64,000 bases of DNA from an uncultured Candidatus Rokubacteria bacterium (GCA_963789955.1 CAWBMV010000034.1:544001-608000); one strand, 5' to 3'; positions 1 to 17,261 are shown, counted from the first letter of the stretch. Notes: a model not told the origin generated them from the letters alone. Translations and numbers: made by a program.

Positions 1-308
1 TGACCTTCACCTGGCTCATGGGGCTGATGGGCTTCGCCCGCTCGGGCATCCGCCAGCACTGGCACGTCTACGGCGTCATGCGCGACAACTCGGTCGACGC
101 GGTCACGCCCGCGATCGGGTACGCGTCCAACATGATCACGGTGGTCACCATCGCGTTCTTCCTGCTCGTGCTGTTCATCTTCTGGCTCGGCGGACTCGGC
201 GAGAAGGGCAAGGCCGAGGCGCACGGCCACGCGGCGCCGGTCATCGCCGGCGGCAGCGACGCCTCGGCGGGGGAGCCGAGAGGGGGGCGGAGCCCCCTTC
301 TCCCATAA
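1..308 (+). CDS. C-terminal part (5'-truncated by window) of a cytochrome bd-like oxidase subunit, Nitrospira/anammox type
   Basis: Frame reads TFTWLMGLMGFARSGIRQHWHVYGVMRD..TP then a TM helix. I recognise this as the conserved C-terminus of Nitrospira-type bd-like (CydA-like) proteins. Cytochrome c genes follow. Confidence 0.7.
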   Translation, partial: TFTWLMGLMGFARSGIRQHWHVYGVMRDNSVDAVTPAIGYASNMITVVTIAFFLLVLFIFWLGGLGEKGKAEAHGHAAPVIAGGSDASAGEPRGGRSPLLP

Positions 309-309
309 A

Positions 310-1108
310 ATGCGACTTCCGGTCGCGGTGAAGGTCGGGGCGTTCGCGCTCGTCGTGATGGGCAGCTACACGTACTACGCGAACTCGATTCCGCAGATCC
401 AGTCGAAGCCTCCCGCAAGAGCTGTCGCTCGAGGGCGGCAACGTCACGACGGCCCAGCTCGTGAAGGCCGGCGAGGAGATCTTCCACACCAAGGGCACCT
501 GCGAGATCTGCCATCGCATCGGCCAGAAGGGAACGCGCGCGCCCGATCTCGCGGGCATCGGCTCGCGCGCGGCCAAGACGAAGCCGGGCATGAGCGCCAA
601 GCAGTACATCATCGAGTCGCTGCTGCAGCCGGGCGCCTACCTCGTCGAGGGCTACCCGAACATCATGCCGCAGATCGACAAGCCGCCGATCGCGCTCAAC
701 CGCTCCGAGCTCTGGGCGCTCACGGCGTTCCTCGAGTCGCAGGGCGGCACGGCCGACGTCAAGCTCGACGACATCCCGAAGACCGCGGGCGCGTCGGCCG
801 CCGGCGGCGCGCCGGCCGAGATCAAGCTGCCGGGCGACCCGAAGGCGGGCGAAGCCGTGTTCACGACGAAGGCCGGCTGCATCGCGTGCCACAAGGCGGG
901 CAAGATCGGCGCCTCGCCGGTCGGCCCCGATCTCTCGCAGATCGCGAAGATCCAGACGCCCGACTACATCATGAAGAAGATCCTGGATCCCGCGGGCTCC
1001 GGGACGGTCGCGGGCTTCCCGAAGGGCGTGATGCCGCCGATGTTCGGCCAGACCCTGACGGCGAAGGAGTATATGGACCTGGTCTCGTTCCTGCTGACGC
1101 TCAAGTGA
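310..1108 (+). CDS. Membrane-anchored diheme cytochrome c (frameshift near 415)
   Basis: N-terminal TM (310 frame) joins the 461..1108 frame, which has CEICH and CIACH and distal Met motifs (NIMP, GVMP). Confidence 0.85.
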
Positions 1109-1112
1109 GGGC

Positions 1113-1866
1113 ATGAACTTCCTCCGCTCGCGCTTCGCCCAGGCGGTCCTCGTCCTCGTGATCGCCTTCGTGATCTTCCGCTTCGGCATCCGGCCGCCGG
1201 CGCCGTGGAGCGTGCTCACGCTCTACATGACGATCGTGCTCCTGGCGGTGCTCGTGTTCGTCTCGTCCGACTCCGACTCGTGGCGCGACTTCATGCGGCC
1301 GATCCGCACGACCCTGGTCGCGCCCGACAAGAAATTCACGCGCCTCGCGCTCCTGGTCATCGTGCCGCTCCTGCTCGGCTACTACGCGTACACGCAGGCC
1401 GCGGCCAAGCCGCAGGCGCCGCCGGAGCTGCGCGCCGTCCATCCCGCGCCGCCCGCGTCGATCCAGTTCCGCGGCAAGGAGATCCAGATCACGGGGTTGG
1501 ACAACCCGCTGCGCAAGGACCAGGCGAGCTTCAAGAAGCACGTGGCGGCCGGAGAAGAGATCTACATCCGCAACTGCATGTACTGCCACGGCGACAACCT
1601 GGATGGGAAAGGGCACTTCGCGCACGGCTTCAATCCGCCGCCGGCGAACTTCCAGGATCCGGGCACGATCGCGATGCTCCAGGAGGCATTTCTCTTCTGG
1701 CGCATCTCGAAGGGCGGACCCGGGCCTGCCCAAGGAGTCCACGCCCTGGAACTCGGTCATGCCGGCGTGGGAAGACCGCCTGACCGAGGAGCAGATCTGG
1801 CAGGTCATCATGTATCTCTACGACGCGACCGGTCAGCAGCCGCGGCGCTGGGAGACCGCGCATTGA
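1113..1866 (+). CDS. Membrane-bound monoheme cytochrome c (frameshift near 1725)
   Basis: Three N-terminal TM segments, CMYCH, then PGLPKESTPWNSVMPAWEDRLTEEQIWQVIMYLY in the shifted frame; stop at 1866. Confidence 0.85.
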
Positions 1867-3315
1867 GGGCCACCGTCCTCGCGGCCGCCGTCGTCGCCCT
1901 CGTCGTTCGCCGCGCCGGCGCTCGTCGGCGCGCAGGCCGGCGACGCGAACGCCGGCAAGGCCGTCTACCAGCTCAAATGCGTCGGCTGTCACGGCGACAA
2001 GGGCGACGGCAAGGGGCCGGCCGCCGAACTCCTCATGCCGCAGCCCCGCGACTTCACCTCGGGCATCTACAAGATCCGGACGACGGCCGGCAAGGCGCCG
2101 TCCGACCAGGACCTCTTCCGATCATCACCGACGGGATGCCCGGCACGTCGATGCCGCCGTGGGCGGTGCTTCCCGAGAAGGACCGCTGGAATCTCGTCGC
2201 GTACATCAAGGCGTTCGCGGCGGACAAGTTCAAGGAAGCGCCCAAGAAGCTCGAGCTGCCCAAGGAAGTCGCCTCGTCGGCGGAGTCGATCAAGCGCGGC
2301 AAGGAGATGTTCGAGGCGATCGAGTGCAACAAGTGCCACGGCACCGACGGGCGCGCCGACGGTCCGTCGCGCGCCGAGCTGAAGGACGAGTGGGGCCATC
2401 CGATCGCGCCGGCCAATCTCACCAAGCGGTGGACGTTCCGCGGCGGCGCGACGCGAACCGAGATCGCCACGCGGCTCGCCGCGGGGGTGCTCGGCACGCC
2501 GATGCCCATCGTTCATCGACAGCGTCGAGAAGCCCGAGGACATCTGGCACCTGACGAACTACATCCTGTCCCTGGGCCCGGACTCGCCGCACTACGCGAC
2601 GCTGGTCACGGTCACCGCCGTGTCGGACGCGATCCCCGACGACCCGAACGCCGACTTCTGGAAGAAGCTCACGCCCAACAACATCCCGCTGATGGGCCAG
2701 GTGATCGTCGATCCGCGGAACTTCAATCCGTCGATCGACCTCGTGTCGGTGCGCGCGGTCTACAACGACAAGGAGATCGCGTTCCACCTGACGTGGGACG
2801 ATCCGACCCAGTCGACCGACGATCCCGCGAAGAAGCTGTTCGCCGACGCGATCTCGCTGCAGTTCCCGCCGCAGCCCTCGTCCGGCACCGAGCGGCCGTA
2901 CTTCCTGATGGGCGACGCCTCGGACGCGGTCTATCTCCTGCGCTGGGAGAACGGCAAGGGCGTGACGGAGTCGACCGCGAACGGTCCGGCGAAGATCGCG
3001 GCGATCCCGGGGGCCGAAGCGGGCGGCAAAGCGGTGTACGCGAACGGCCAGTATCGCCTCGTGATGAAGCGCCCGCTGGTGTCGAAGGACGCCACGCGCC
3101 CGACGTTCTCGCCCGCGGCGTTCATGCCGGTCGCGTTCCAGGCCTGGGACGGCGGAGCAGGGGAGAGCGGGACTCGGATGTCGCTGACATCATGGTACTA
3201 TCTGCGGCTGGAGGAGCCGCAGTCGGGCCGTCGTTTCGTCATTCCTCCAGTCGTAGCCATCCTCACATTGGCGGTGATGTTGCTCGTGGTGCGAGTTGCG
3301 AATAGACGGGCATGA
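1863..3315 (+). CDS. Diheme cytochrome c fused to an EB_dh/DOMON-type heme-b domain with C-terminal TM anchor (alternative NxrC-like architecture); several frameshifts
   Basis: Signal peptide, CVGCH and CNKCH, then ...VRAVYNDKEIAFHLTWDDPT...FADAISLQFP...VAFQAWDG... typical of EbdC/EB_dh domains, then a terminal TM helix. Confidence 0.8.
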
Positions 3316-3340
3316 CCCGAATTCAGGAGGATCAAGGGCA

Positions 3341-4042
3341 ATGCGTAAGGTAATCGGAACGCTTCTGGCGATCGCGCTCGTGACAGGCGTCGCCCTCGTC
3401 GCCAACCGCCCCGGACCGGCCGGAGCGCAGGGCGGCGGCACGATCGAGGCGACGGTGACGTATGCCGGGGCGCCGGTCGTCGAGAAGCTCAAGGTGAACA
3501 AGGACACCGAAAAGTGCGGGACCGAGGCGACGATCGAGAAGGTCGTCGTCGGCGCGAACAAGGGGCTGGCCAACGCCGTCGTGTCCGTTCCGGGCGCCAA
3601 GGGCGGCGCGCCGAAGGCAGTGAAGACGACGGTCGATCAGCACGGCTGCAAGTTCGTGCCGCACGTCAGCGCGATGACGCCGGGCGAGATGGATCTCAAG
3701 AACTCGGACGACATCCTGCACAACATCCATACGTACTCGACCGCGAATCCGTCCATCAACAAGGCCCAGCCGAAGTTCAAGAAGGTGATGGCCGAGAAGT
3801 TCGAGAAGCCGGAGATGATCAAGCTCACCTGCGACGTGCACAGCTGGATGCTCGGGTGGGTCGCCGTGATGCCGAATCCGTTCTTCGGCGTGACCGGCGC
3901 CGACGGCACCGCCAAGATCGAGAACGTCCCGCCCGGCAAGTACACGGTCGAGGTGTGGCACGAGACGCTCGGCAAGCAGACGAAAGAGGTCGAGGTCAAG
4001 GCCGGGCAGCCAACGAAGGTCGCGATCGAGATGAAGAAGTAA
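3341..4042 (+). CDS. Exported cupredoxin-like / carboxypeptidase-regulatory-like domain protein
   Basis: AGGAGG RBS, signal peptide, HNIH and CDVHSWM motifs, C-terminal VPPGKYTVEVWHE beta-sandwich. Confidence 0.75.
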   Translation: MRKVIGTLLAIALVTGVALVANRPGPAGAQGGGTIEATVTYAGAPVVEKLKVNKDTEKCGTEATIEKVVVGANKGLANAVVSVPGAKGGAPKAVKTTVDQHGCKFVPHVSAMTPGEMDLKNSDDILHNIHTYSTANPSINKAQPKFKKVMAEKFEKPEMIKLTCDVHSWMLGWVAVMPNPFFGVTGADGTAKIENVPPGKYTVEVWHETLGKQTKEVEVKAGQPTKVAIEMKK

Positions 4043-4063
4043 GAGCCAGGAGGCTCGGCGAGC

Positions 4064-4762
4064 ATGCTTGACTGGTGGCTGCCGGAGAACGTTTCGACCT
4101 ACGGCCGGGACATCGACTGGCTCTTCCACCTCATCTACTACATCACCGGCGTCACGTTCATCCTGGTCTTCGCCACGATGCTGGCGTTCCTCGTGATGTA
4201 CCGGGACCGTCCGGGGCGGAAGGCGCGCTACACGCACGGCAACACCACGCTCGAGATCGTCTGGACGATCGTGCCGGCGCTGATCCTCGTCATCCTCACG
4301 CTTGCTCAGCGTGCCGGCGTGGTCGAAGATCAAGATGACGATGCCCGCAGACGGACTTCGTCGTGCAGGTGACCGCCAAGCAGTTCAACTGGGAGGTCGA
4401 CCTATCCCGGCGCCGACGGGAAGTTCGGCACCGACGACGACAAGATGCTGCTCGACGAGATGCACGTGCCGGTCAACAAGGTCGATCCGCGTCATCCTGA
4501 AGTCCCAGGACGTCATCCACAGCTTCTTCGTCCCGCAGTTCCGCTTCAAGCAGGACGCCGTGCCCGGCCGCGAGATCCGCGCGTGGTTCGAGGCGACCAA
4601 GCCCGGGCAAGTACGAGTTGCCGTGCGCCGAGCTGTGCGGCTTCGGCCACTCGGGCATGAAGGGCTGGATCTACGTGCACACGCCCGAGGAGTACGGCAA
4701 GTGGGCCGCCGAGAACTTGACGGTCGCGCGGCGGCGCCCGCCGCCGAGCGCGACGATCCTGA
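4064..4762 (+). CDS. ctaC: Cytochrome c oxidase subunit II (frameshifted)
   Basis: Two TMs (LEIVWTIVP), DVIHSFFVP and the CuA motif CAELCGFGHSGM spread over shifted frames. No fused cytochrome c. Confidence 0.9.
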
Positions 4763-4786
4763 GGAGCGAGAGGAGAAAGCCAAGAG

Positions 4787-6578
<1,792 letters not shown>

Positions 6579-6593
6579 TCGAGAGGGCGACCG

Positions 6594-7425
6594 GTGGCCT
6601 ATCGTCTGGCGCTCGCCACCCTGGGCGCCACGTGTGTCCTCATCCTCTTGGGGGGACTGGTCACGAACACGGGCGCCGCGCTGGCGGTGCCCGACTGGCC
6701 GAGCACGTTCGGCTACAACATGGTTCTCTTCCCCTGGTCGAGGATGGTGGGCGGCATCCTCTACGAGCACAGCCATCGGTTGATGGGCGCGCTCGTCGGG
6801 CTGCTCACCCTGGCCCTGGCGGGGGCGCTCTGGCGTGAAGGCGGCCGGCTGCGGCGTCTCGGACTCGTCGCGGTGGCCGCCGTCGTCGCTCAGGGCGTGC
6901 TGGGCGGGCTCCGCGTCGTTCTCCTGCAGGACACGCTCGCGATCTTCCACGGATGCCTCGCCCAGGCGTTCTTCGCGCTGCTGGCGGTGATCGCGCTGCT
7001 GACGGCTCCGGGCGGCCGCGTCGCCGCTTCACCGGTCGAGCCCGCGCTGAAGGGCCTGGCGGTGCTCGCCGCCGTTCTCGTCTACGTGCAGATCGTGTTC
7101 GGCGCGCTCCTGACACACGCCGGACGCATCGACCTGCACCTGGCCGGGGCCGTTCTCGTGTTCGTCCTGGTCCCGATCGTCGCCGCGCAGCTTCGCCGGA
7201 CAGGCGATGCGGTGGCCGCGCCGGTGTCGCGACTCGTCGGCGTTCTGCTCGGCGTTCAGCTCCTGCTCGGCGTCGGCAGCTTCCTGGCGAGGTTCTCGTC
7301 GATCTGGATTCCGGGCGAGCAGCTGACGGTGCACGGCCCTGCCGGTCGCGCACCGGCTGATGGGTAGCCTGATTCTGGCGGCTTGCGTCGTCCTCGCGGT
7401 GAGAGTGAGTGTTGTCGCGGGGTTT
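6594..7425 (+). CDS. ctaA: Heme A synthase (COX15/CtaA). Frameshift near 7335; the last helix is in frame with ctaB, so the end is uncertain.
   Basis: GGLVTNTGAALAVPDWP, EHSHRL, QGVLGGLRV, HGCLAQ, AHRLMG motifs. Confidence 0.88.
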
Positions 7426-7566
7426 GTTGTAGCGGGGGCGGGTCGACCGTGCAGCGAGCCGTCCATGAGGCCGCCGGCCGAAGGGTTGTCCGCCGAAACG
7501 CGAGCCGGCTCGCGTCTCTGCAGGCCACCCTCGGTCGAGCTGGCGCGTCGCGGACCCCGCTACAAC
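7426..7566. repeat. 141-bp REP-doublet/MITE-like element with 12-bp terminal inverted repeats GTTGTAGCGGGG...CCCCGCTACAAC
   Basis: Perfect TIRs at 7426-7437 and 7555-7566. The right half is the reverse complement of the repeat unit at 47276-47341. Confidence 0.8.
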
Positions 7567-7587
7567 CGATGCGATGGGGACCTTGCC

Positions 7588-8514
7588 ATGACTCCACCCA
7601 CGCTCGAAACCGCGCGCGTCGGCGCGGACGCCGTCGTCGTCGGACTGGCGCGCGAACGCCTCCGGGTCGCCGCCGATCTGCTCGCCCTGACGAAGCCGCG
7701 CGTCGTCCTCATGGTGCTGGTGACAACCGTCGTCGGGTACTACGTCGGGCTGACGGGCGCGCCGGACTACGTTCGGCTCGTGCACCTGCTGATCGGCACG
7801 ATGCTGGCGGCCGGCGGCACGCTCGCGCTCAATCAGTACTGGGAGCGCGACGTCGACGCCCGGATGAATCGCACGCGCGTGCGTCCGCTCCCGGACGGTC
7901 GGCTCTCGCCGCTCGAGGCGCTCGTCTTCGCCACCGCCGTCACGGTCGCCGGCCTCGGCTACCTCGGCGCGTTCGTGGGAGGCCTGGCGCTGCTGGTGAC
8001 CGCGGCGACGACCGTGCTGTATCTCTTCGCCTACACGCCGCTCAAGCTCCGGACGCCGCTCTGCACGATCATCGGCGCGGTACCGGGCGCGCTGCCGCCG
8101 GTGACGGGGTGGGTGGCCTCGCGCGAAGGCTTCGGCCTGGGCGCCTGGGTGCTGTTCGGGATCCTGTTCCTGTGGCAGCTGCCGCACACCCTGGCGATCG
8201 CGCGTCTCTACCGCGACGACTACGCGCGCGCGGGTGTCCGTCTGCTGCCGGTGGTCGACGTCGACGGAACCTCGACCGAGCGGCAGATCGTCACCGGCTG
8301 CCTCGCGTTGCTCGCGGTCAGCCTGCTGCCGACCTTGATCGGCCTGGCGGGCCCGTTCTACTTCGTCGGCGCCTTCGTGCTCGGCGCGGCGTTCGTCGCG
8401 CTCGGCGCGCGTCAGGCGCTCGCGCCGTCACAGGGCTCGGCCCGGCGCGTCCTGTATGCGTCGTTGCTCTACCTGCCGATCCTGTTAGCGCTGCTCGCGT
8501 TCGACAAGGTATGA
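7588..8514 (+). CDS. ctaB: Protoheme IX farnesyltransferase (heme O synthase)
   Basis: LTKPRV, NQYWERDVDARMNRTRVRPLP, YTPLKLRT, GAVPGALPP, LFLWQLPH motifs. Confidence 0.95.
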   Translation: MTPPTLETARVGADAVVVGLARERLRVAADLLALTKPRVVLMVLVTTVVGYYVGLTGAPDYVRLVHLLIGTMLAAGGTLALNQYWERDVDARMNRTRVRPLPDGRLSPLEALVFATAVTVAGLGYLGAFVGGLALLVTAATTVLYLFAYTPLKLRTPLCTIIGAVPGALPPVTGWVASREGFGLGAWVLFGILFLWQLPHTLAIARLYRDDYARAGVRLLPVVDVDGTSTERQIVTGCLALLAVSLLPTLIGLAGPFYFVGAFVLGAAFVALGARQALAPSQGSARRVLYASLLYLPILLALLAFDKV

Positions 8515-8610
8515 CCAGCGACGCGCGGAACCGGCAAATCCTGCAAGATCATCCTGACGATCGTCGGGGCGCTCATCGTCTCGTCGTTCCTCGTCGGAAT
8601 TCGCTGGTGA
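8511..8610 (+). CDS. Very small single-TM protein (about 32 aa, one frameshift)
   Basis: ATGA overlap with the ctaB stop; reads MTSDARNRQIL..IILTIVGALIVSSFLVGIRW; its stop overlaps the next GTG. Confidence 0.5.
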
Positions 8611-9270
8611 CGACGCTCACCGTCGAGCGCCCGCGGCGGGCCAACGGACGCGTTCCGCCGACTCCACCGCCGACCGGCGGGGGCGACGGCTTCGAGCGCG
8701 AGCCGGGACCGCGCCGGCCGCTCCTCGACAACGTCCGGCTGGCGATGCTGTTCCTGATCTGCGGCGGAGGTCATGTTCTTCGGAGGCCTCGTCTCGGCGT
8801 TCCTGGTTCTGCGGGTGAGCGCCGCGCAGTGGCCGCCTCCGTTGCAGCCGCGCCTGCCGGTCGGCGTGACCGGCGTCAACACCTTGGTCCTGCTCGCCTC
8901 GAGCGTCGCCATGGTCGCGGCGATCCGCGCGCTCGAACGGCACGACTCGAGGGCGCTCGTGCGACGCCTGCTGATCGCCGGCGGGCTCGGCGCCGCGTTC
9001 CTGCTCGTGCAGGGCTACGAGTGGATTCGCCTCGTCAGCTACGGGCTCACGATGGCATCGGGCGCCTACGGGACGACCTTCTATACCGTGATCGGAACGC
9101 ACGCGGCGCACGTGGTCGCGGCGGTCGTCTGGGTCGGCGTCACCGTGATGCTCGCCGCCCGCGACCGTTTCCTCGACGGCCGGGCGGGCGCCTTGCGCGC
9201 GTGCGCGATCTACTGGCACTTCGTCGTCGCGCTGTGGCCGATTCTCTACGTGGCGGTGTACGTCGTATGA
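8607..9270 (+). CDS. ctaE: Cytochrome c oxidase subunit III family protein (copy 1; frameshift near 8765)
   Basis: LAMLFLI..E.MFFGGLVSAF, NTLVLLASS, QGYEW, FYTVIGTHAAHV, YWHFVVALW. Confidence 0.88.
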
Positions 9271-9494
9271 AGATCATGGCGGTGGCCGGGCTGGCTTCGA
9301 TCGCGACGCCGAGGGCGGCGCTGGCGTGCGCGACGTGCATCAGCTCGCCGTTCGGCGATCAGTCGTACAACTGGCCCTATCTCGGACTCATCCTGTTGCC
9401 GTTCGGTCTGATCGTCGCGATCGTCGGCATCCTCGGATATCACGCCTACTTCGGCGCCAAGGAAGACCCTCGGATCATCAAGGAGACGACATGA
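9267..9494 (+). CDS. Small membrane protein with ACxxC motif
   Basis: MKIMAVAGLASIATPRAALACATCISSPFG... plus one TM helix; ATGA coupling at both ends. Confidence 0.65.
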   Translation: MKIMAVAGLASIATPRAALACATCISSPFGDQSYNWPYLGLILLPFGLIVAIVGILGYHAYFGAKEDPRIIKETT

Positions 9495-10108
9495 GTCAGG
9501 CAGCCGCGATACACGGGGCGGTCGAGCCCGCCGAATCGCCGGTCACCCCAGAGAGCTGGGGAAAGCTCGGGATGTGGATCTTCCTGGCGGGCGACGCCGT
9601 CGGTTTCGGGACCTTGCTCGCCGGCTACGGCGCGATGCGGGCGACCAGCGCCGACTGGCCGTCGCCGTACGACGTCCTCGGCATCAACCTGACCGCCCTG
9701 ATGACCTTCCTGCTCATCTGCTCGAGCGTGACGATGGTGAAGGCGCTCGAGTGGCTCGGCAAGGGGGACAAGGGCCGCGCTCAGAATTATCTCTTCTATA
9801 CGGCGCTCGGCGGCGCGATCTTCGTGAGCCTCCAGGCCTACGAGTGGACGCACCTGATCCATCGCGGCCTGCATATCAACGGCAACCCGTGGGGCGCCTC
9901 GCTCTTCGGCACGTCGTTCTTCCTGGTGACGGGCTTCCACGGCTTGCACGTGACCGGCGGCGTCATCTATCTGCTCTCGATCCTGCGAGTCGTCGCGCGG
10001 CGCCCGTCGCCGGCGGCGAGCTACAACGCGGTCGAGATCGCCGGCCTGTACTGGCACTTCGTCGACCTCGTCTGGATCATGGTGTTCACCTTCATGTACC
10101 TCCTGTAG
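9491..10108 (+). CDS. ctaE: Cytochrome c oxidase subunit III family protein (copy 2)
   Basis: GKLGMWIFLAGD, TFLLICSSVTM, QAYEW, TGFHGLHV, GLYWHFVDLVW. Confidence 0.92.
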   Translation: MSQAAAIHGAVEPAESPVTPESWGKLGMWIFLAGDAVGFGTLLAGYGAMRATSADWPSPYDVLGINLTALMTFLLICSSVTMVKALEWLGKGDKGRAQNYLFYTALGGAIFVSLQAYEWTHLIHRGLHINGNPWGASLFGTSFFLVTGFHGLHVTGGVIYLLSILRVVARRPSPAASYNAVEIAGLYWHFVDLVWIMVFTFMYLL

Positions 10109-10120
10109 GGGGTCGAAGCG

Positions 10121-10447
10121 ATGGCGAGCGAGCACAAGCATCCGAACTACATGGCGATCTTCTGGTATCTCGCGATCCTCACCGTGGTCGAGATCGCGGT
10201 GATCTACCTGCCGCTGGGGAAATTCACGATCGGCGTGCTGCTGTGCGCCCTGGCTCTCACCAAGGCGACGATGGTCGCGATGTATTTCATGCACCTCAAG
10301 TTCGAGACGCGGACTCTCGGCCTGGTCGCCATCACGCCGCTCGCGATCGCCACCTTGCTGATCTTCGTGCTGCTGCCGGACGGATTCGCCGTCATGAAGC
10401 GGACGGCCGACGTCAAGGCGGCCACGACCGAGCCCGCGAAGCACTGA
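10121..10447 (+). CDS. Cytochrome c oxidase subunit IV family protein
   Basis: Three TMs; LAILTVVE and KATMVAMYFMHLKFE motifs. Confidence 0.88.
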   Translation: MASEHKHPNYMAIFWYLAILTVVEIAVIYLPLGKFTIGVLLCALALTKATMVAMYFMHLKFETRTLGLVAITPLAIATLLIFVLLPDGFAVMKRTADVKAATTEPAKH

Positions 10448-10478
10448 GTGCGCGGCCCAGACGCCGGCAGCGGGAGCG

Positions 10479-10847
10479 ATGGAATCGCAGCGACTGGCCG
10501 ACCGCGTCACGCGGGCCCTGGGCCGGGCGATCCGCTTGCGCTGTCCGCGCTGCGGGGCGACGCCGCTCTTCCGCGGCTGGTTCCGGATGGCGGAGTCGTG
10601 CGCGCTGTGCGGACTCCGGTTCGAGCGGGCGCAGGGCTACTTCGTCGGCGCGATCTACATCAACTACGCGGTGACGACGCTCATCGCGGTCGGCGGGTTC
10701 TTCCTGCTGTGGGGCCAGTTCGGGCTCTCCACGCAGGCTCAGCTCCTCGTGCTGGTGCCGATCGTGGTCGTGTTCCCGCTGTGGTTCTTCCGCTACAGCC
10801 GGAGCTTCTGGCTCGCGCTGGAGTGGTCGCTCAACAGCGAGCCCTGA
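10479..10847 (+). CDS. DUF983-family membrane protein
   Basis: CPRCG...CALCG zinc-ribbon-like N-terminus, two TMs, YSRSFWLAL. Confidence 0.75.
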   Translation: MESQRLADRVTRALGRAIRLRCPRCGATPLFRGWFRMAESCALCGLRFERAQGYFVGAIYINYAVTTLIAVGGFFLLWGQFGLSTQAQLLVLVPIVVVFPLWFFRYSRSFWLALEWSLNSEP

Positions 10848-10870
10848 CCGCCGCCGCGGCCTTCGGCCTC

Positions 10871-11591
10871 ATGATCCTGGTCGCGACGCCGGCCGGCGCC
10901 TACGAGGTCGCCGCCGTCCAGGACGGCGGCACGATCACCGGCACCGTGAAGTTCGTCGGCGCGCTGCCGAAGCTCGACCCGATCCCCGTCAGCAAGAACC
11001 GCGACGTGTGCGGCGAGCGCAAGGCGTCGGAGGCGCTCGTGCTGTCCGCCGAGAGGGGTGTCAAGGGCGGCGTCGTGCTGATCGCGGGCGTGGCGCGCGG
11101 CAAGAAGCGCGGCCGGCGACGTGGTGCTGGACAACAGCCAGTGCGTCTTCGTGAGCCACGTGACGGCGGCCGCGCTGACGGAGCGGGTGTCGATCCGGAA
11201 CTCCGACCCGATTCTCCACAACACCCACGGCTTTCGCGGCACGCCGACCGCGTTCAACGTCGCGCTGCCGACGAAGGGTCAGATGATCGAGGTCACGAAG
11301 TATCTCAAGAGCCCGGGCGTGATCCGCGTGCTGTGCGACGCGCATCCGCACATGTTCGCGTGGCTGATCGTGCACGACAGCCCGTACTTCGCCGTCACCG
11401 ACGACCAGGGCACGTTCAGCATCGGCGACGTCCCGCCGGGGACCTACAAGGTCACGATGTGGCACGCCGGCTTCCGGCCCAGGGGCGCCGACAAGGACGG
11501 CCGGCGGACCTATGACGAGCCGCGGACCGTGACGCGCGAGATCACGGTCGCGCCGAAGGCGACCGCGACGGTCGACTTCGAGCTGAAGTAG
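10871..11591 (+). CDS. Second exported cupredoxin-like / carboxypeptidase-regulatory-like protein (frameshift near 11108; start approximate)
   Basis: Paralogous to 3341..4042: NSDPILHNTH, CDAHPHM, VPPGTYKVTMWH. Confidence 0.75.
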
Positions 11592-11684
11592 CAGGCATTC
11601 GGTGGTGCGCGCGGCGAGTCGTCGCGGGGCGGGGGCCCGCCGGCCGACGCGCGCGTATAGCGCGTATAGATAGAGGGGGACTTC

Positions 11685-13592
11685 ATGTTCAAGCACATCT
11701 GCGTACCGGTGGACAACTCGGACTGCTCGAACCGCGCGATCGACCTGGCGGTCGAGCTCGGCCGATCGTTCGGCGCCCGACTCACGGGCGTGCACGTGTA
11801 CGCGGCGCGGCTGCACGACTACCGGTTCAAGCAGATGGAGTACACGCTGCCCGAGGAGTACAAGGACGAGAACGAGCTCGAGCGCCAGCGCAAGATCCAC
11901 GACTCGCTCATCGCGATGGGCCTGCAGCTCATCTCGGAGTCGTATCTGGACGTGATGGCGAAGAAGGCCGTCGAGGCCGGGCTCGACTTCGAGCCCAAGA
12001 TGATCGACGGCAAGCACTACAAGGTCCTGATCGAGGACACGCTCGCCTCCGACTACGATCTGGTCGTCATGGGTGCCCTCGGCATGGGCGCGGTGAAGGA
12101 CAGCCAGATCGGCTCGGTCACCGAGCGCTTCGTCCGCCGGGTGAGCCGCGACACGTTAATTGTCCGGAACGCCGATGCGCTGAAGGATCGGGAGGGCGCG
12201 ATCGTCGTCTGCCTCGACGGCTCGCCGCAGTCGTTCAACGGCCTGAAGCTCGGCATCGCGCTCGCGGCGGCGCTCCACCGGCCGCTGCAGGCCGTCGCCG
12301 TCTACGACCCGTACCTGCACTACGCGATGTTCAACGGCATCGTCGGTGTGCTGAACGAGAAGGCGTCGAAGATCTTCCGCTTCAAGGAGCAGGAGCAGCT
12401 GCACGAGGAGATCATCGACACCGGGCTCGCCAAGATCTACCAGTCGCACCTCGAGATCGGCCGCAAGCTCGCCGCCGACGCGGGGGTCGAGCTGGCCATC
12501 ACCTTGCTCGACGGCAAGTGCTTCGAGAAGATCCTGACGTTCGCCCGCAAGGAGCAGCCGTGGCTGCTCATCCTCGGACGGGTCGGGGTGCACTCGGACG
12601 AGCACGAGACCGATCTCGGCTCCAACACCGAGAACATCATGCGGCTGGCGCCGTGCAACGTGCTCCTGACCGGCGGCAAGTTCTACCCGCCGCTCGACGT
12701 GAAGGCCGAGGAGATCATCTCGTGGACCGAGGAGGCGGAGGCGCGGATGGAGCGGGTGCCGCCCCAGGTCAAGGGTGTCGCCCGGACCGCGCTCCTGCGC
12801 TACGCGATCGAGCAGGGGCACACCGTCATCACCAACAAGGTGATCGACGAGGCGATGGCGATCTTCATGCCGACGCGGATGGCCGAGCGGATGCAGATCC
12901 TGGCCGAGGACGTCGCGGTGGCCAAGCTGCGCACCGAGTCCCAGCCGGCGACGGCGATCTGCTCGATCTGCGGCTACACGGTCAAGGGACCGAACCCGGT
13001 CGTCACGTGTCCGGTCTGCAAGGCCGCCCCCGACAAGTTCCAGATCATCTCGAAGGAAGCGGTGGAAGCGATCGCGACTCAGGAAGGCGGCGTCGAGTCC
13101 GAGGAGTCGATGCCGGGCGTGCAGGTGAAGTGGTCGGCCGAGGCGCGCGACGCGCTGCGCGAGGTCACCGACGCCTATCTGCGGCGCCGCGCGAAGGCGC
13201 GGGTCGAGAAGTACGCCCGCTCGCGGAAGATCCCGGTCATCACCTGCCAGCTCGCGTTGCCGATGATCGAGGAAACGGTCGGCCGTGAGAAGCTCGGCGC
13301 CGGCTGGGACACGTTGCTCGCCAGGACGAAGTTCGAGCCGGCCGACATGCCCGCGGTCCCGTCGAGCGAGGCCGGCACCGGCTTCGGCTGGACCGAGGAC
13401 GCGACCGCGCGGCTCAATCGCGTGCCGGCCGGATTCATGCGCGACATGACGCGCGAGGAAGTGGAGCGTGTGGCGTCCTCCAAGGGCGTGACCGTCATCG
13501 ATCTCGCCGTCTGCGAGGAGGGGATCGGGCACGCTCGCGAGACCATGAACGAGGTGATCGCCGGGTACGTATCGAATAAGAAACCGCGATAA
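11685..13592 (+). CDS. Tandem universal stress protein domains fused to a rubredoxin-like domain and three PCP_red-like (BchB/ChlB C-terminal) domains
   Basis: MFKHICVPVDNS..DLVVMGALG..GSVTERFV; second USP IVVCLDGS..GSNTENIMRLAPC; CSICGY..CPVC; three W[T/S]xEA..L..VP helical repeats. Confidence 0.85.
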   Translation: MFKHICVPVDNSDCSNRAIDLAVELGRSFGARLTGVHVYAARLHDYRFKQMEYTLPEEYKDENELERQRKIHDSLIAMGLQLISESYLDVMAKKAVEAGLDFEPKMIDGKHYKVLIEDTLASDYDLVVMGALGMGAVKDSQIGSVTERFVRRVSRDTLIVRNADALKDREGAIVVCLDGSPQSFNGLKLGIALAAALHRPLQAVAVYDPYLHYAMFNGIVGVLNEKASKIFRFKEQEQLHEEIIDTGLAKIYQSHLEIGRKLAADAGVELAITLLDGKCFEKILTFARKEQPWLLILGRVGVHSDEHETDLGSNTENIMRLAPCNVLLTGGKFYPPLDVKAEEIISWTEEAEARMERVPPQVKGVARTALLRYAIEQGHTVITNKVIDEAMAIFMPTRMAERMQILAEDVAVAKLRTESQPATAICSICGYTVKGPNPVVTCPVCKAAPDKFQIISKEAVEAIATQEGGVESEESMPGVQVKWSAEARDALREVTDAYLRRRAKARVEKYARSRKIPVITCQLALPMIEETVGREKLGAGWDTLLARTKFEPADMPAVPSSEAGTGFGWTEDATARLNRVPAGFMRDMTREEVERVASSKGVTVIDLAVCEEGIGHARETMNEVIAGYVSNKKPR

Positions 13593-13728
13593 GCGCGGGC
13601 GAGGGGGTGGGGTGCCTCCCCGGCGCCGACTGCTTACCTTCGGGTGCGGTTGGTCTCCATGTTCCGCGTGACTGCGACCGCTGCCTACACGGCGCCGGGG
13701 AGGCACCCCCACCCCCTCGCCCGCGCTT
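13591..13728. repeat. Long near-perfect inverted repeat (38/39-nt arms, 61-nt spacer)
   Basis: 13591-13628 is the reverse complement of 13690-13728 apart from one G in a homopolymer run. Confidence 0.85.
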
Positions 13729-13778
13729 CCATGGATCCCGCGCGCTGCGCCCGCGTCTTCGACCACGGGTCGCGCCGT

Positions 13779-15212
13779 ATGACCGATACCTCGATCTCCG
13801 CGCGCCACGCGGAGCCCGCCTTGCCTGCGAACGTGGCTCGGCGGCGGCCGTATACGGCGTATTCCGTGTCGTGGAATTTGACGCAGCGGTGCAATCTCGA
13901 GTGCGCGCATTGTTATATGTCGGCGTTCGCGGGGGCCGATACGCGCGGCGAGCTTTCGACCGACGAGTGCCGGCGGGTGATGGACGAGATCGCGCTCGTC
14001 AATCCCAATGTCTTCCTGATTCTGACCGGGGGAGAGCCGCTGCTTCGAAAGGACATCTGGGAGATCGCGGGCTATGCCGCGGAGAAGCGATTCACGACGG
14101 TGCTCGGGACGAACGGCGTGCTCCTGCGCGAGCGCGAGGCGAAGGCGATGCGGACGCACGGCGTCCTCGGCGCCTCGATCAGCCTCGACTCGACCGACCG
14201 CGCCAAGCACGACGCGTTTCGGCACCTTCCGGGCTCCTGGGACGGCGCGGTGCGCGCCACGCGTGTCCTGACCGACGCCGGACTCGATTTCTCGCTCCAC
14301 ATGTCGGTGACCGACTGGAACGTGGGTGAGGTGCCCGCGATGATCGATCTGGCGCGGCAGCTCGGCGCCAAGGTGCTGAACTTCTTCTTCCTGGTCAGGA
14401 CGGGACGCGGCCAGAACCTCACCGACATCGACCCGGCGGCCTACGAGCGCATCCTGAACTATCTCGCCCGGGTTCAGGGTGTCGGCGGCGGACCGCCGTC
14501 GTTCGTGCGGTCATTGCTCGGAATGGGCGAGCGACGCCCGGCGGGCGGCTCGCAGGGGTTCGAGGATCCCTGGTCGACACCGGTCGGGCGGAGCGACGGA
14601 CTCCTGATCCGCGCGAAGTGCGCGCCGCACTTTCGCCGGGTCCTCTACGAGCTGAATCCGTCGTCGCCGCTGCTCCGCAACTACGCGCACGGCTCGTGTC
14701 CGGCCGGCAAGTACTACTGTCGCATCACGCCCGAGGGCGACGTGACGCCGTGCCCGTACATGCCGGTCACCGCCGGCAACCTGCGCCAGCACTCCTTCGC
14801 CGACCTCTGGCGCGGCGCGCCGGTGTTCGCCGACCTGCGCGATCCGAAGCTCGGCGGACGATGCGGCGCCTGCGAGTTCTCGAAGATCTGCGGGGGATGC
14901 CGCTGCCGCGCTTACGCGACGCACGGCGACTACCTCGCCGAGGATCCGGCGTGCGGCTACCAGCCGGGCGGGCACGGCGGCGCCTTGATCGATCTGCCGG
15001 CCTCGCTCACGTTCGGGCTGCCGATCGACTACCAGCTCGTGTGGGACGAGGACGCGCGCGCGCGCCTGCAGGCCATTCCGTCGTTCGCGCGGGGGATGGT
15101 CATCAAGGCGGTCGAAGCCTACGCGCGCGGGCGGGGCGACACGACGATCACGAAGGAGCTGCTCGCGGACGTGCGCTCGAAGTGGGGCTCGCGCTTCCGC
15201 GCCTCGTCCTGA
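13779..15212 (+). CDS. Radical SAM/SPASM protein (NirJ/AhbC/AhbD-like) with C-terminal PCP_red-like domain
   Basis: WNLTQRCNLECAHC, TGGEPLLR, SPASM CPAG..GDVTPCPY..CGACEFSKICGGCRCRAY..EDPAC, then WDEDARARLQAIPSFARGMVIKAVEAYA. Confidence 0.9.
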   Translation: MTDTSISARHAEPALPANVARRRPYTAYSVSWNLTQRCNLECAHCYMSAFAGADTRGELSTDECRRVMDEIALVNPNVFLILTGGEPLLRKDIWEIAGYAAEKRFTTVLGTNGVLLREREAKAMRTHGVLGASISLDSTDRAKHDAFRHLPGSWDGAVRATRVLTDAGLDFSLHMSVTDWNVGEVPAMIDLARQLGAKVLNFFFLVRTGRGQNLTDIDPAAYERILNYLARVQGVGGGPPSFVRSLLGMGERRPAGGSQGFEDPWSTPVGRSDGLLIRAKCAPHFRRVLYELNPSSPLLRNYAHGSCPAGKYYCRITPEGDVTPCPYMPVTAGNLRQHSFADLWRGAPVFADLRDPKLGGRCGACEFSKICGGCRCRAYATHGDYLAEDPACGYQPGGHGGALIDLPASLTFGLPIDYQLVWDEDARARLQAIPSFARGMVIKAVEAYARGRGDTTITKELLADVRSKWGSRFRASS

Positions 15213-15637
15213 TGGATCGGTTCCGCCTCGCGTCCCGCGCGTATCTGGTCTATGGCGTGGTCTACTGGATCGGCGGGCTCTATCTCGCCACGCAGGGCGT
15301 GGGCGTCCGCGGCGGACGCATGATGCAGGCGGGTGTCGCGTGGATCGTCATCGGACTGGTGCTGGTGGCGGCGATCCCGTATCTGCTCGCTCGGCGTCGA
15401 GCGTGGTTCGAGCGCTGGATCCTCTCGCGCCGCGACTTCGCGCGCGTGCTGACGGCGTTCATGGCCTTTCGGGCCTGGCACGTGCTGAGGGTGGCGCTCC
15501 GCCCGGAGACCGCGAGTATCGCGGCGCCCTGGGGCGGCGAGATCACCTTCCGTGCCGGCGCGATCGTCTTCCTGATCGTCACCGTGACCGCGCTGCTCCT
15601 GATCGGACGCGCGGCCTGGGCGAAGGAGGCTCCGTGA
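15212..15637 (+). CDS. Hypothetical membrane protein (4 TM)
   Basis: MDRFRLASRAYLVYGVVYWIGG...; overlaps the neighbouring stop and start. Confidence 0.7.
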   Translation: MDRFRLASRAYLVYGVVYWIGGLYLATQGVGVRGGRMMQAGVAWIVIGLVLVAAIPYLLARRRAWFERWILSRRDFARVLTAFMAFRAWHVLRVALRPETASIAAPWGGEITFRAGAIVFLIVTVTALLLIGRAAWAKEAP

Positions 15638-16579
15638 AGCGCTACAAGGACATCGCCGGCGACGGCGGCTCGAACATCGCGGGCCAGGTCGAGGCCCAGC
15701 AGGGCCGGCTGAAGAAGCGGCTCGAGTCGGTCCGGGCAATCGTCGCGATCGTCTCCGGCAAGGGCGGTGTGGGAAAATCGACGCTCACGGCGAGCCTGGC
15801 CTGCGCCTTCGCCCTCGACGGCTCGAAGGTCGGCGTGCTCGACGCGGATCTCAACGGCCCGACGCAGGCCAAGGTCCTGGGCGTGCGCGGCCGGCGCCTG
15901 GTCATCGCCGACGGTGTCGTCGAGCCGCCGGCCACGGACCTGGGCGTGAAGGTGATGTCGATGGACCTGCTGCTGCCGACCGACGCCGCGCCGCTCACCT
16001 GGGATGCGCCGGTGCAGGACGAGGCGCACACGTGGCGCGGCGCCATGGAGGCGAATGCGCTCCGCGAGTTCCTGGCGGACACCGAACTGGGGCACGCTCG
16101 ACCTCTTGCTGCTCGATCTGCCGCCCGGCACCGACCGGCTCGCGACGATCGCGTCGCTCGTCCCGACGCTCTCGGGAATCGTGGTCGTGACGATCCCGTC
16201 CGACGTGTCGCATCTGGTGGTGAGACGATCGATCACGGTGGCGGCCAACACGCGGGCGCCGGTGCTCGGGCTGGTCGAGAACATGTCCGGCCTCTTCGTG
16301 GGGCCCGACGCCTCCAGGCTCGCCGCGGACGCCGGGATCCCCTTCCTCGGCAGCGTGCCGTTCGATCGGGCGCTCGCCGTCGCCGGCGATCAGGGCGATC
16401 CGTTCGTCGCCAGCGCGCCGGAGCGCATGGCCGCGATGGCTCTCAGGCGAATTGCCGAGGGAATCCGCAGCCGCGCTGGCCCCGCGGCCGGTGTGATCGC
16501 GGTCGGACAAAGAAATCGGCCCCGGACAGAGCCGGGGCCGAGGCGTATCCGCGAGAGAGTTTTCTCTACTGGCAGTTGA
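15634..16579 (+). CDS. Mrp/ApbC/Nbp35-family P-loop ATPase (frameshift near 16090)
   Basis: SGKGGVGKST, DADLNGP, VMSM, WRG, DLPPGTD, VENMS. Confidence 0.85.
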
Positions 16580-17261
16580 TCTTCGGATCCGGGGTGTAGC
16601 CGGCCACCTTGTACGTCAGCACGAAGTCGTCAGCCCACGCCTTCGGCTTGATCTGGCCGAGCTTGGTCTCGCCGTCCCACGCGATGACGTGCGAGCCTTC
16701 GGCGAGCTGCGCGACGCTGGCCTTCCCGCGCAGATAGTCGACGACCACCGACTTCGGAACGAACACGGCGGCAGTCTCCATGACCGCCTGCTGCCCGCTC
16801 GCGGGCTCGGCCTTCAGCCAGCTCGCGATCACGGTGAAGCCCTCGAGGTTGGGCTCCTTGATCAGATCGTTCGTGGCCATCGAGCGCAGGAGGTGCGGGA
16901 CGTAGCGCGAGAACATCGACGAGACTCGGTCCTGGACACTGAGGCGTACGAACTCAGGAGCCGGCTGCTGATCGACGTTGACGTTCAGCGAGAGGTAGCG
17001 AATGTCGCCTTCGATGTGCTTGGGCTTGTAGAAGCCGATTCCTTCCGGCTTCACGTCCAGCCAGGGCATGCAGTGATAGACCTTCGCGTTGAGGTCGCGA
17101 AGAGCTCCCTGATACTTCTGGCCGAGCGCGCGTCCCTTGTCCGAAGTGTACCGGTCGGGCTGAAGCACCCGGTCGGTCGGCGCCTCGGCGGCCGAAGCCG
17201 GGTTGACAAGGAAGGTCAGGGTCGCGGCGGCGGCCATTCCAACGATCGCGCGTCCGAGCAT
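16566..17261 (-). CDS. Exported hypothetical protein
   Basis: Signal peptide ending ASAA, coding-like codon usage, no recognised domain. Confidence 0.75.
   Translation of the reverse strand: MLGRAIVGMAAAATLTFLVNPASAAEAPTDRVLQPDRYTSDKGRALGQKYQGALRDLNAKVYHCMPWLDVKPEGIGFYKPKHIEGDIRYLSLNVNVDQQPAPEFVRLSVQDRVSSMFSRYVPHLLRSMATNDLIKEPNLEGFTVIASWLKAEPASGQQAVMETAAVFVPKSVVVDYLRGKASVAQLAEGSHVIAWDGETKLGQIKPKAWADDFVLTYKVAGYTPDPKINCQ

Follow-up and report, generated by a model that had tools for sequence, protein, structure and literature searches.

A conserved USP, radical SAM and Mrp gene set with repeated PCP_red domains that tracks a CydA-like oxidase in Methylomirabilota

Four adjacent genes on the + strand (11685-16579) of a Rokubacteriales genome form a conserved set that is inherited together with a CydA-like (bd-like) oxidase subunit. 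They lie in a stretch of 64,000 nucleotides from an uncultured Candidatus Rokubacteria bacterium (GCA_963789955.1, CAWBMV010000034.1:544001-608000; G000:C34:544001-608000 in our numbering), here called the window, from whose first base positions are counted. The genome, G000, is 87% complete, and the nearest named homologues of the window's proteins come from Rokubacteria/Methylomirabilota. In order, the genes encode a protein with two universal stress protein (USP) domains and three PCP_red domains, a radical S-adenosylmethionine (rSAM)/SPASM enzyme that ends in a further PCP_red domain, a small membrane protein, and an Mrp-type P-loop ATPase. The gene set is real, conserved, and built from known protein families, and it is apparently undescribed. 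Together with a fifth gene, for a CxxC...CxxC-PCP_red protein (CxxC-PCP), the four genes may quite possibly serve to supply heme specifically to the CydA-like oxidase, which is probably of the OR-N type; this is the reading that we tentatively prefer.

An earlier note, made from the sequence of the window, had proposed that repeated PCP_red-like domains mark an undescribed cofactor-maturation or redox-sensing module, possibly a heme-modifying or assembly system for the upstream oxidase; overall, that interpretation is partly supported. No description of the gene set was found in the accessible parts of the literature located (PMC8115632, bioRxiv 2021.01.16.426971, bioRxiv 2021.11.15.468770, PMC12022308, PMC13474568, PMC12342949, PMC3578206, PMC10839748, and PMC10114771), and subscription journals lay largely outside this search. 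The main text of the OR-N report (bioRxiv 2021.01.16.426971), as far as available, describes no accessory or maturation genes for these enzymes; its supplements, which hold the details of the OR-N operons, may mention them.

Gene Order and Co-inheritance with the CydA-like Oxidase

Within the Methylomirabilota, the gene linkage that the earlier note presupposed is conserved: the order USP, rSAM, membrane protein, Mrp is kept in all 55 loci with at least 7.5 kb of downstream sequence (80 loci were fetched), and the genes are co-inherited across the 201 genomes described below. The overlapping stop and start codons that had been reported are present both between the rSAM and membrane protein genes (TGATG, 15210-15214) and between the membrane protein and Mrp genes (GTGA, 15634-15637), the Mrp frame itself being split at 16082; the USP and rSAM genes do not overlap. 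One-base indels make up 51 of the 66 gaps between the window and a relative (L004) over the span 3300-11700, and because they are so abundant, the broken frames in the window are probably long-read assembly errors.

We searched 201 Methylomirabilota genomes, each at least 70% complete, with each protein. Matches were found for USP in 121 genomes, the CydA-like protein in 118, rSAM in 117, the Mrp clade in 112, the N-terminus of CxxC-PCP in 107, and the window's COX1 in 104; two genera (g6, 0/14, and g10, 0/6) have none of the six. The rSAM and CydA-like proteins occur together in 107 genomes, whereas 10 have rSAM only, 11 have the CydA-like protein only, and 73 have neither. The corresponding numbers are 107/14/11/69 for USP and 100/7/18/76 for CxxC-PCP. 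In the order to which the window belongs, the CxxC-PCP gene is located on another contig or locus, yet it is lost together with the operon.

Two oxidases are candidates for the client. The upstream oxidase of the earlier note is, within the window, of the aa3 type, since the module is preceded, within window 1-11591, by an aa3-type heme-copper oxidase block that sets it apart from the CydA-like and cytochrome c genes, in the same order as in relatives; the bd-like enzyme is represented by the CydA-like gene at the operon head, of which the window holds the 3' end (1..309, + strand; PF01654, E 1.3e-17). This gene begins before the window, and its complete form encodes 589 residues (L101:16540-18309). 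It is followed by its accompanying cytochrome c genes, which are frameshifted in the assembly (310..3305, + strand). Among the 55 genomes of families f5-f12, 14 have the COX1 and lack the CydA-like protein, and in these 14 rSAM, CxxC-PCP, and Mrp are each found once and USP four times. Conversely, six genomes have the CydA-like protein without such a COX1, and each module gene is present in five of the six. A link of the module to the aa3 oxidase was rejected because the COX1-positive, CydA-like-negative genomes mostly lack the module, and the co-occurrence with a bd-like oxidase that had been anticipated is what we observe.

The positions of the genes point in the same direction. In three genomes (G044, G047, and G060) the module abuts the CydA-like and cytochrome genes, with no COX gene in the stretch examined. 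Where the USP block has moved away (G046, G056, G098, G122, G030, and G115), rSAM stays on the CydA-like contig, either adjacent or 3-13 kb off, and where the USP block adjoins aa3 genes, rSAM likewise remains on the CydA-like contig. A second CydA-like paralogue, about 55% identical, also has module genes beside it. The CydA-like gene combines CydA homology (PF01654) with cytochrome c neighbors, as in the OR-N bd-like oxidases (Murali et al., bioRxiv 10.1101/2021.01.16.426971, in the part available; TO_1 of Ca. Manganitrophus), so that the CydA-like subunit is probably that of an OR-N bd-like oxidase and the likely client of the module. Its product gives 12 crude hydropathy windows, one of them at the N-terminus; OR-N1/N2 have 14 membrane helices.

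The Tandem USP Protein

The first gene (11685..13592, + strand) encodes 635 residues with the architecture USP-USP-PCP_red-rubredoxin knuckle-PCP_red-PCP_red, as seen with Pfam, AlphaFold2, and Foldseek. Pfam matches Usp twice (E 3.9e-37), the AlphaFold2 model (predicted local distance difference test 90.1, predicted template modeling score 0.66) has a long helical insert in each USP domain, and the top Foldseek matches of the model are the tandem USPs Rv2623 and TTHA0350 (E 2e-16). The insert of domain 1, delimited from the alignment and the model (residues 41-97; 11805..11975, + strand), contains H44, R47, F48, E52, R69, and H72, with H44 conserved in 103/106 rows of alignment A2, R47 in 99/106, R69 in 105/109, and H72 in 105/108. 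The insert of domain 2, taken from the alignment (residues 209-265; 12309..12479, + strand), contains H212, F216, Q236, H240, and Y252 and is a pseudo-repeat of the first; H212 and F216 are conserved in 119/119 rows and H240 in 119/121. In other words, the four histidines and two arginines of the inserts (H44, H72, H212, H240, R47, and R69) are 93-100% conserved. The histidines of each pair are 28 residues apart and, with their arginine and aromatic neighbors, would fit a heme or coproheme site, a metal site being the alternative.

ATP-binding USPs carry the motif G-2x-G-9x-G(S/T). This motif is exact at residues 130-144 and has a ten-residue spacer at 298-313, and the glycines of domain 1 (G130, G133, and G143) are present in 112/112 rows. 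The protein thus has two USP domains, the fold, and the ATP motif in common with the tandem ATP-binding USPs (Rv2623, 3CIS; TTHA0350, 3AB8; UspE), but it differs from them in the long conserved His/Arg helical inserts of both domains and in its PCP_red and rubredoxin tail. The rubredoxin-like pair of CxxC motifs recognized in the earlier note is confirmed as a knuckle, C426xxC429...C442xxC445 (12960..13040, + strand; RUBY_RBDX, residues 426-452, E 1.9e-8). This knuckle (PF21349) is present in 23% and 47% of the members of two Atlas clusters and is missing from many representatives. Because homologues carry between one and six PCP units and the knuckle is optional, the conserved part of the protein is the His-insert core with the first PCP unit. 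The Pfam matches of 28 homologues include no DNA-binding or kinase domain, and homologues were not found in viral contigs or plasmids. Three homologues (P0132, P0181, and P0197) have an extra N-terminal domain of 250-350 residues, which has no match in the PDB; one of them gives a weak PNPOx_N match (23.8 bits, below the cut-off), which we did not use as evidence of heme binding.

The PCP_red Units

The helical repeats of the earlier note are PCP_red domains (Pfam PF08369, cut-off 32.5 bits). In the USP protein the three matches total 93.5 bits (E 7.8e-27); taken singly, unit 1 (12723..12854) scores 44.5 bits and unit 3 (13389..13520) 45.4 bits, both over the cut-off, and the divergent unit 2 (13131..13250) falls just below it at 30.6 bits. 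The unit of the rSAM enzyme (15042..15173; all four on the + strand) scores 56 bits singly, and the Pfam match to the protein covers residues 422-465 (E 4.3e-14, 52.7 bits). A custom profile gave 66, 48, and 75 bits for the USP units versus 4.9 bits for the best of 300 shuffles, this profile having been built from relatives and thus not being independent. There are only five PF08369 matches in G000: three in USP, one in rSAM, and one in CxxC-PCP. The modeled PCP unit of a CxxC-PCP protein (from L122) matches 2KRU (Z 9.7, root-mean-square deviation 1.4 over 55 residues) and 2L09 (Z 6.8), and the USP model has the same helix pattern, the three-helix fold of these structures. The modeled unit further resembles the lids of many AAA+ proteins and two free lid-like domains, found at the N-termini of replicative polymerase subunits in complexes, at Z 5-6, which is middling for helical units; the PCP_red profile gave a 3% probability against sigma-54 activator lids, and one of 30 shuffles scored higher. 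The N-terminal ribbon of the same CxxC-PCP model has no clear match in a structure search (Z 5.3 or less).

The module proteins share the sequence and fold of this domain with subunit B (BchB/ChlB) of dark-operative protochlorophyllide oxidoreductase (DPOR), but they lack its catalytic domain, and they carry PCP_red in one to six copies, attached to USP, rSAM, or zinc-ribbon parts. A DPOR remnant or subunit B was rejected (TIGR01278, 66.2 bits versus 490, with only the last 50 positions matched). The PCP units may act as docking points that gather the module proteins. That they dock on Mrp itself is more doubtful, a rather less than likely refinement of this view; a cryo-electron microscopy paper on DPOR, in the part available, says only that the L-protein contacts BchB.

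The Radical SAM Enzyme

The second gene (13779..15212, + strand) encodes an AhbD/NirJ2-like rSAM/SPASM enzyme with a C-terminal PCP_red unit, according to Pfam, NCBIfam, and its motifs. We took ATG 13779 as its start, which is uncertain because of indels at 13787-13848. The best NCBIfam scores are AhbD 299.9, NirJ2 298.9, TIGR04053 260, and NirJ 193.7 bits; the cut-off of 500 for AhbD (TIGR04545) and NirJ2 (TIGR04055) is not reached, and nine relatives score 246-341 bits. The radical SAM motif CX3CX2C is present in 73/73 homologues and CX2CX5CX2CX17C, at residues 362-392 in the window, in 72/73; the latter is the auxiliary-cluster motif of AhbD (PMC10114771, section 7). Tetrapyrrole models outscore peptide-maturase models by more than 100 bits, and the top sequence match in the PDB is PqqE. 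A tree of 32 rows, trimmed to the catalytic part and built without a characterized AhbD reference, groups the sequences into three clades, one Methylomirabilota/Manganitrophus-like and well supported, one Nitrospira-like, and one AhbD-like, which join at an unsupported node. The placement of the enzyme in the AhbD/NirJ2 neighborhood, near the NirJ/Ahb-type enzymes of the earlier note, is supported by these comparisons and by tetrapyrrole-gene neighbors elsewhere. The enzyme has the fold of AhbD and NirJ2, both cysteine motifs, and these families as its best-scoring models, but it scores about 300 bits versus 500, carries a C-terminal PCP_red, and has a fixed USP partner, and AhbA/B/C were not found in the genomes tested. 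NirJ (heme d1) was rejected (TIGR04051, 193.7 versus a cut-off of 515).

Among the metagenome matches listed, two loci (L129 and L157) have a nearer-canonical AhbD behind USP in place of the module rSAM. The enzyme of L129 (L129:4999-6396, 459.5 bits) has its own C-terminal PCP_red and is a second rSAM lineage with such a tail; that of L157 (383.8 bits) is cut. In two further loci (L131 and L194) rSAM-PCP is followed by a HemY over its cut-off.

The Membrane Protein, Mrp, and CxxC-PCP

The third gene (15212..15637, + strand) encodes a 141-residue membrane protein of an unnamed family whose position is conserved. The four transmembrane segments ascribed to it can all be made out by eye as hydrophobic stretches, but a crude hydropathy window accepts only two of them; there is no Pfam or NCBIfam match, only unnamed Atlas clusters.

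The fourth gene (15634..16579, + strand) encodes an Mrp/ApbC-type P-loop ATPase of about 286 residues in relatives. In the window an extra base at 16082 splits its frame, and another at 16470 makes the gene longer. The extra base at 16082 is absent from GTDB relatives and from close-relative contigs in three of four runs, the fourth barely covering the site; this frameshift is probably an assembly error, and a pseudogene was rejected on the same grounds. Both pieces match PF10609 (87 and 96 bits), the deviant Walker A motif is GKGGVGKS, and the best NCBIfam models are MrpORP and ApbC. The ATPase is thus Mrp-like, as proposed, but only distantly BchL-like: its N-terminal piece stays far below the BchL and NifH cut-offs (TIGR01281, 22.6 versus 345 bits; TIGR01287, 19.4 versus 394 bits). 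In Mrp/ApbC proteins, a CxxC after an ENM motif binds a bridging cluster. This CxxC is missing in the window and in 49 of 73 loci and present in the other 24. With the Mrp/ApbC/Nbp35 iron-sulfur carriers the protein shares the GKGGVGKS P-loop and PF10609; unlike them, it belongs to a clade of its own (39% identical to the housekeeping paralogue of the genome), has mostly lost the CxxC, and is paired with PCP_red proteins.

The CxxC-PCP protein (170 residues) is encoded on contig C1 of G000 (L102:9724-10236, - strand). Its sequence includes NPxETQ, which is invariant, and a CPF motif, which 11 of 15 such proteins have and which presumably resembles heme-regulatory motifs. We regard it as the fifth module member because 13 of 15 such genes (loci L001-L128) lie directly behind Mrp, starting at most 20 bases from its end. 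The neighbor of Mrp is a PCP protein in three guises, namely CxxC-PCP, a multi-PCP protein (L074-type loci), and a 257-residue protein of N. marina, which favors contact between PCP units and Mrp. The multi-PCP protein of L074 (L074:15049-15897) ends in a conserved helical domain; in one family its gene separates that of the membrane protein from Mrp, and in another locus (L131:1378-3540) such a protein, with the conserved helical end, is fused to rSAM. In two genomes, Mrp and CxxC-PCP share a contig with CydA-like paralogues (G026:C12 and G063:C21). Because G026, which is 96% complete, has no USP or rSAM match, the USP-rSAM and Mrp-PCP pairs can separate.

Distribution Beyond the Phylum

Named USP homologues occur in Ca. 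Manganitrophus, Nitrospinota, SAR324, Mariprofundaceae, KSB1, and Chloroflexota, and the Atlas clusters are mostly from Acidobacteriota, Pseudomonadota, and Nitrospirota. OR-N enzymes have been reported, in the literature as far as accessible, from several groups that carry USP homologues. We also examined 80 metagenome loci among the matches listed, 23 of them at least 15 kb long; they come mostly from one Nitrospira-like group, judged by likeness, and do not amount to a survey of phyla. In the 23 long loci rSAM-PCP follows USP in 19, whereas CxxC-PCP lies near USP-rSAM in two and Mrp also in two, so that the complete linkage seen in the Methylomirabilota does not extend to Mrp here. By these counts, USP and rSAM make up one tight pair and Mrp and PCP another, and Rokubacteriales have both joined in a single operon.

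In the proteome table of N. marina (PMC8115632, supplement 4), a 699-residue USP adjoins a 460-residue rSAM/SPASM protein, a 306-residue Mrp-like ATPase adjoins a 257-residue PCP protein, and a 159-residue PCP protein lies two genes from a bd-like subunit. These look-alikes were matched by annotation, order, and length only; one of our loci (L143) has 699- and 461-residue counterparts of the USP and rSAM. According to the same table, all were detected and none was significantly increased at low O2 (for the look-alike of the rSAM enzyme, 38/43/44 spectra under air versus 32/18/27 at low O2), and the USP was unchanged with O2 while four other UspA proteins rose. A conserved nitrite oxidoreductase/bd-like cluster contains a putative zinc-finger gene (PMC3578206, in the part available); whether or not it is the CxxC-PCP gene, it would be a candidate counterpart.

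A Possible Heme Supply Line and Its Alternatives

How might these proteins work together? We infer a substrate and product for rSAM, heme binding by USP, and a role for Mrp as follows. Like AhbD, rSAM would make heme b by decarboxylation of coproheme. The heme would then be captured by the His/Arg inserts of the tandem USP and passed on under the control of ATP, Mrp and CxxC-PCP would service the iron-sulfur clusters of rSAM or power this transfer, the PCP units would be tethers, and the membrane protein a possible anchor. Coproheme should be available in the host, because HemE and ferrochelatase are present in all five genomes tested, module-bearing or not (G000, and four that are 98-100% complete), and G000 has a hemE-hemH-hemY operon. 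Didecarboxysiroheme, which the earlier note had listed as a substrate to assay, is unlikely, since among these five genomes AhbA/B (PF17805) was found in none and AhbC (TIGR04546) in none over the cut-off; a siroheme-route AhbD was rejected for the same reason. In functional terms the proposal resembles CtaA/CtaB (aa3), HemW, and NirJ (heme d1), tetrapyrrole-handling genes that end a respiratory operon and are inherited with their client (PMC10114771 and general knowledge), but the USP, Mrp, and PCP parts have no sequence homology to such factors, and the client here is the uncharacterized OR-N family.

Several observations weigh against this proposal. The rSAM score is about 200 bits below the AhbD cut-off, and in one locus (L160:3796-6305) rSAM-PCP lies behind USP and directly beside a near-canonical AhbD of 499.9 bits, so that a different job for rSAM fits. 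Heme b could be made without the module, because a ChdC-like gene is present in all five genomes with or without it, being short and scoring 42-48 bits in four. The histidine pairs of USP could bind Cu, Fe, or Zn, their heme binding being predicted only, and ApbC-style cluster transfer is doubtful in the window, since Mrp lacks the CxxC there. Much of the co-occurrence stems from one shared island and from kin, and the drafts are incomplete; the CydA-like threshold (E 1e-30) admits paralogues, and the COX1 threshold misses broken genes, including that of G000 itself. Family f10 has no Mrp or CxxC-PCP (0/14), though two of its genomes have USP and rSAM, and in the 23 long metagenome loci a CydA-like gene is near USP-rSAM in only two, as is Mrp. 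The ChdC/chlorite-dismutase-family protein of G000 (G000:C6:469039-469674; 211 residues, 42 bits) would also bear on the role of rSAM if it is a working coproheme decarboxylase.

Some of this evidence would suit the heme-modifying version proposed in the earlier note, in which rSAM makes a non-standard heme, for example one that is further decarboxylated or side-chain-cleaved, for the OR-N oxidase only, with the USP, Mrp, and PCP proteins carrying and inserting it. The module strictly tracks the CydA-like gene and not the aa3 oxidase, for which heme b is needed as well; rSAM forms its own clade below the AhbD/NirJ2 cut-offs and coexists with the near-canonical AhbD of L160 and with ChdC-like genes; and N. 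marina produces its look-alike under air, with no low-O2 induction (PMC8115632, supplement). Since, however, a nearer-canonical AhbD can replace rSAM behind USP (L129 and L157), the AhbD motifs are intact, the tree leaves the relation to AhbD undecided, and the accessible reports mention no unusual heme in OR-N enzymes, we consider a special heme unlikely. At the other extreme, rSAM could be an ordinary O2-independent coproheme decarboxylase of the AhbD type that backs up ChdC on behalf of all hemoproteins; it would only ride on a respiratory island, with the other genes loosely attached. According to a review (PMC10114771, in the part available), the coproporphyrin pathway should employ an AhbD-like enzyme when O2 is absent, the rSAM motifs and the pathway genes of the host fit, and USP-rSAM lies away from oxidase genes in the Nitrospira-like loci listed. 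Against such loose attachment, USP and rSAM are adjacent in 19/23 listed loci outside the phylum and 55/55 inside it, the CxxC-PCP gene, though unlinked, disappears along with the island, the PCP_red tail is retained, and no low-O2 induction is recorded for N. marina (PMC8115632, supplement), all of which makes a plain back-up improbable.

The remaining alternatives take the proteins out of heme supply. The intact ATP motif (112/112 rows), the variable number of PCP units (1-6), the optional knuckle, the CPF motifs, and the loss of the Mrp CxxC would all be at home in a regulatory module in which USP senses ATP, heme, or redox state, PCP_red contacts and an Mrp switch control the assembly or activity of the oxidase, and rSAM is a chaperone like HemW, for which there is a precedent (PMC10114771, in the part available). 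Yet no DNA-binding or kinase domain appears in the 28 homologues, the SPASM cysteines are fully retained, and the N. marina USP does not follow O2 as the other UspA proteins do, so that regulation seems hardly probable. No more promising is the idea that the module installs a metal site or a cross-link in the CydA-like protein, with the His-rich USP and CxxC proteins bringing copper and the SPASM enzyme modifying the protein. SPASM enzymes often modify peptides, PqqE is the best sequence match in the PDB, a copper site has been proposed for one bd-like subunit (PMC8115632, in the part available), and cupredoxin-like genes flank the CydA-like gene (also PMC3578206, in part); but the lead of the tetrapyrrole models, the HemY and AhbD neighbors, and the lack of a link to the copper-dependent aa3 oxidase leave this explanation a poor prospect. 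Combining the heme-centered readings, one could imagine that OR-N oxidases carry their own rSAM-made heme, that USP is an ATP-gated heme chaperone, and that PCP_red, as a mobile docking tag akin to an AAA lid, brings tetrapyrrole enzymes together on an ATPase of the MinD/Mrp/NifH class, in DPOR too; as a whole, we think that this broader picture is rather improbable.

Neighboring Genes

Behind the CydA-like gene the operon continues with the cytochrome c genes, a cupredoxin-like gene, the aa3 block with CtaA and CtaB, DUF983, and a second cupredoxin-like gene. Two genes that Pfam labels carboxypeptidase-regulatory-like (window 3296-4042 and 11121-11591) both have a C-x-x-H-x-x-(x)-M run and recur beside CydA-like genes; we take this run to recall type-1 copper cupredoxins. 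On the - strand behind Mrp (16566-17261), and kept there in many relatives, is a gene for a 231-residue protein with a signal-like N-terminus and no Pfam or NCBIfam match. Two other Methylomirabilota genomes have, beside the module and a CydA-like paralogue, alpha subunits of about 1150 residues (L082:3517-6987 and L100:6557-10009) of twin-arginine-type molybdoenzymes that look Nxr/Nar-like, and in two loci (L090 and L099) USP and rSAM stand back to back with alternative complex III-like genes, judged from N-termini only. Sediment metatranscriptome contigs of relatives cover 30/30 bins in one run and 24/30 in another, a coverage that we did not count, as contigs do not show transcription.

Significance

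For most Nitrospirales and Nitrospinota, the OR-N bd-like complex has been proposed, though not yet tested, as the terminal oxidase, and Ca. Manganitrophus expresses it strongly, according to the accessible part of the literature. If rSAM is a plain AhbD, what remains of interest is a conserved partner set for O2-independent heme b synthesis. If, on the other hand, the genes are a true maturation set, they name what to co-express for an active OR-N enzyme and the cofactor to seek, and a long-open question of nitrifier bioenergetics would become testable. Such a maturation role would also be the first function of PCP_red outside chlorophyll synthesis, and a ligand-carrying role that is new for the USP family.

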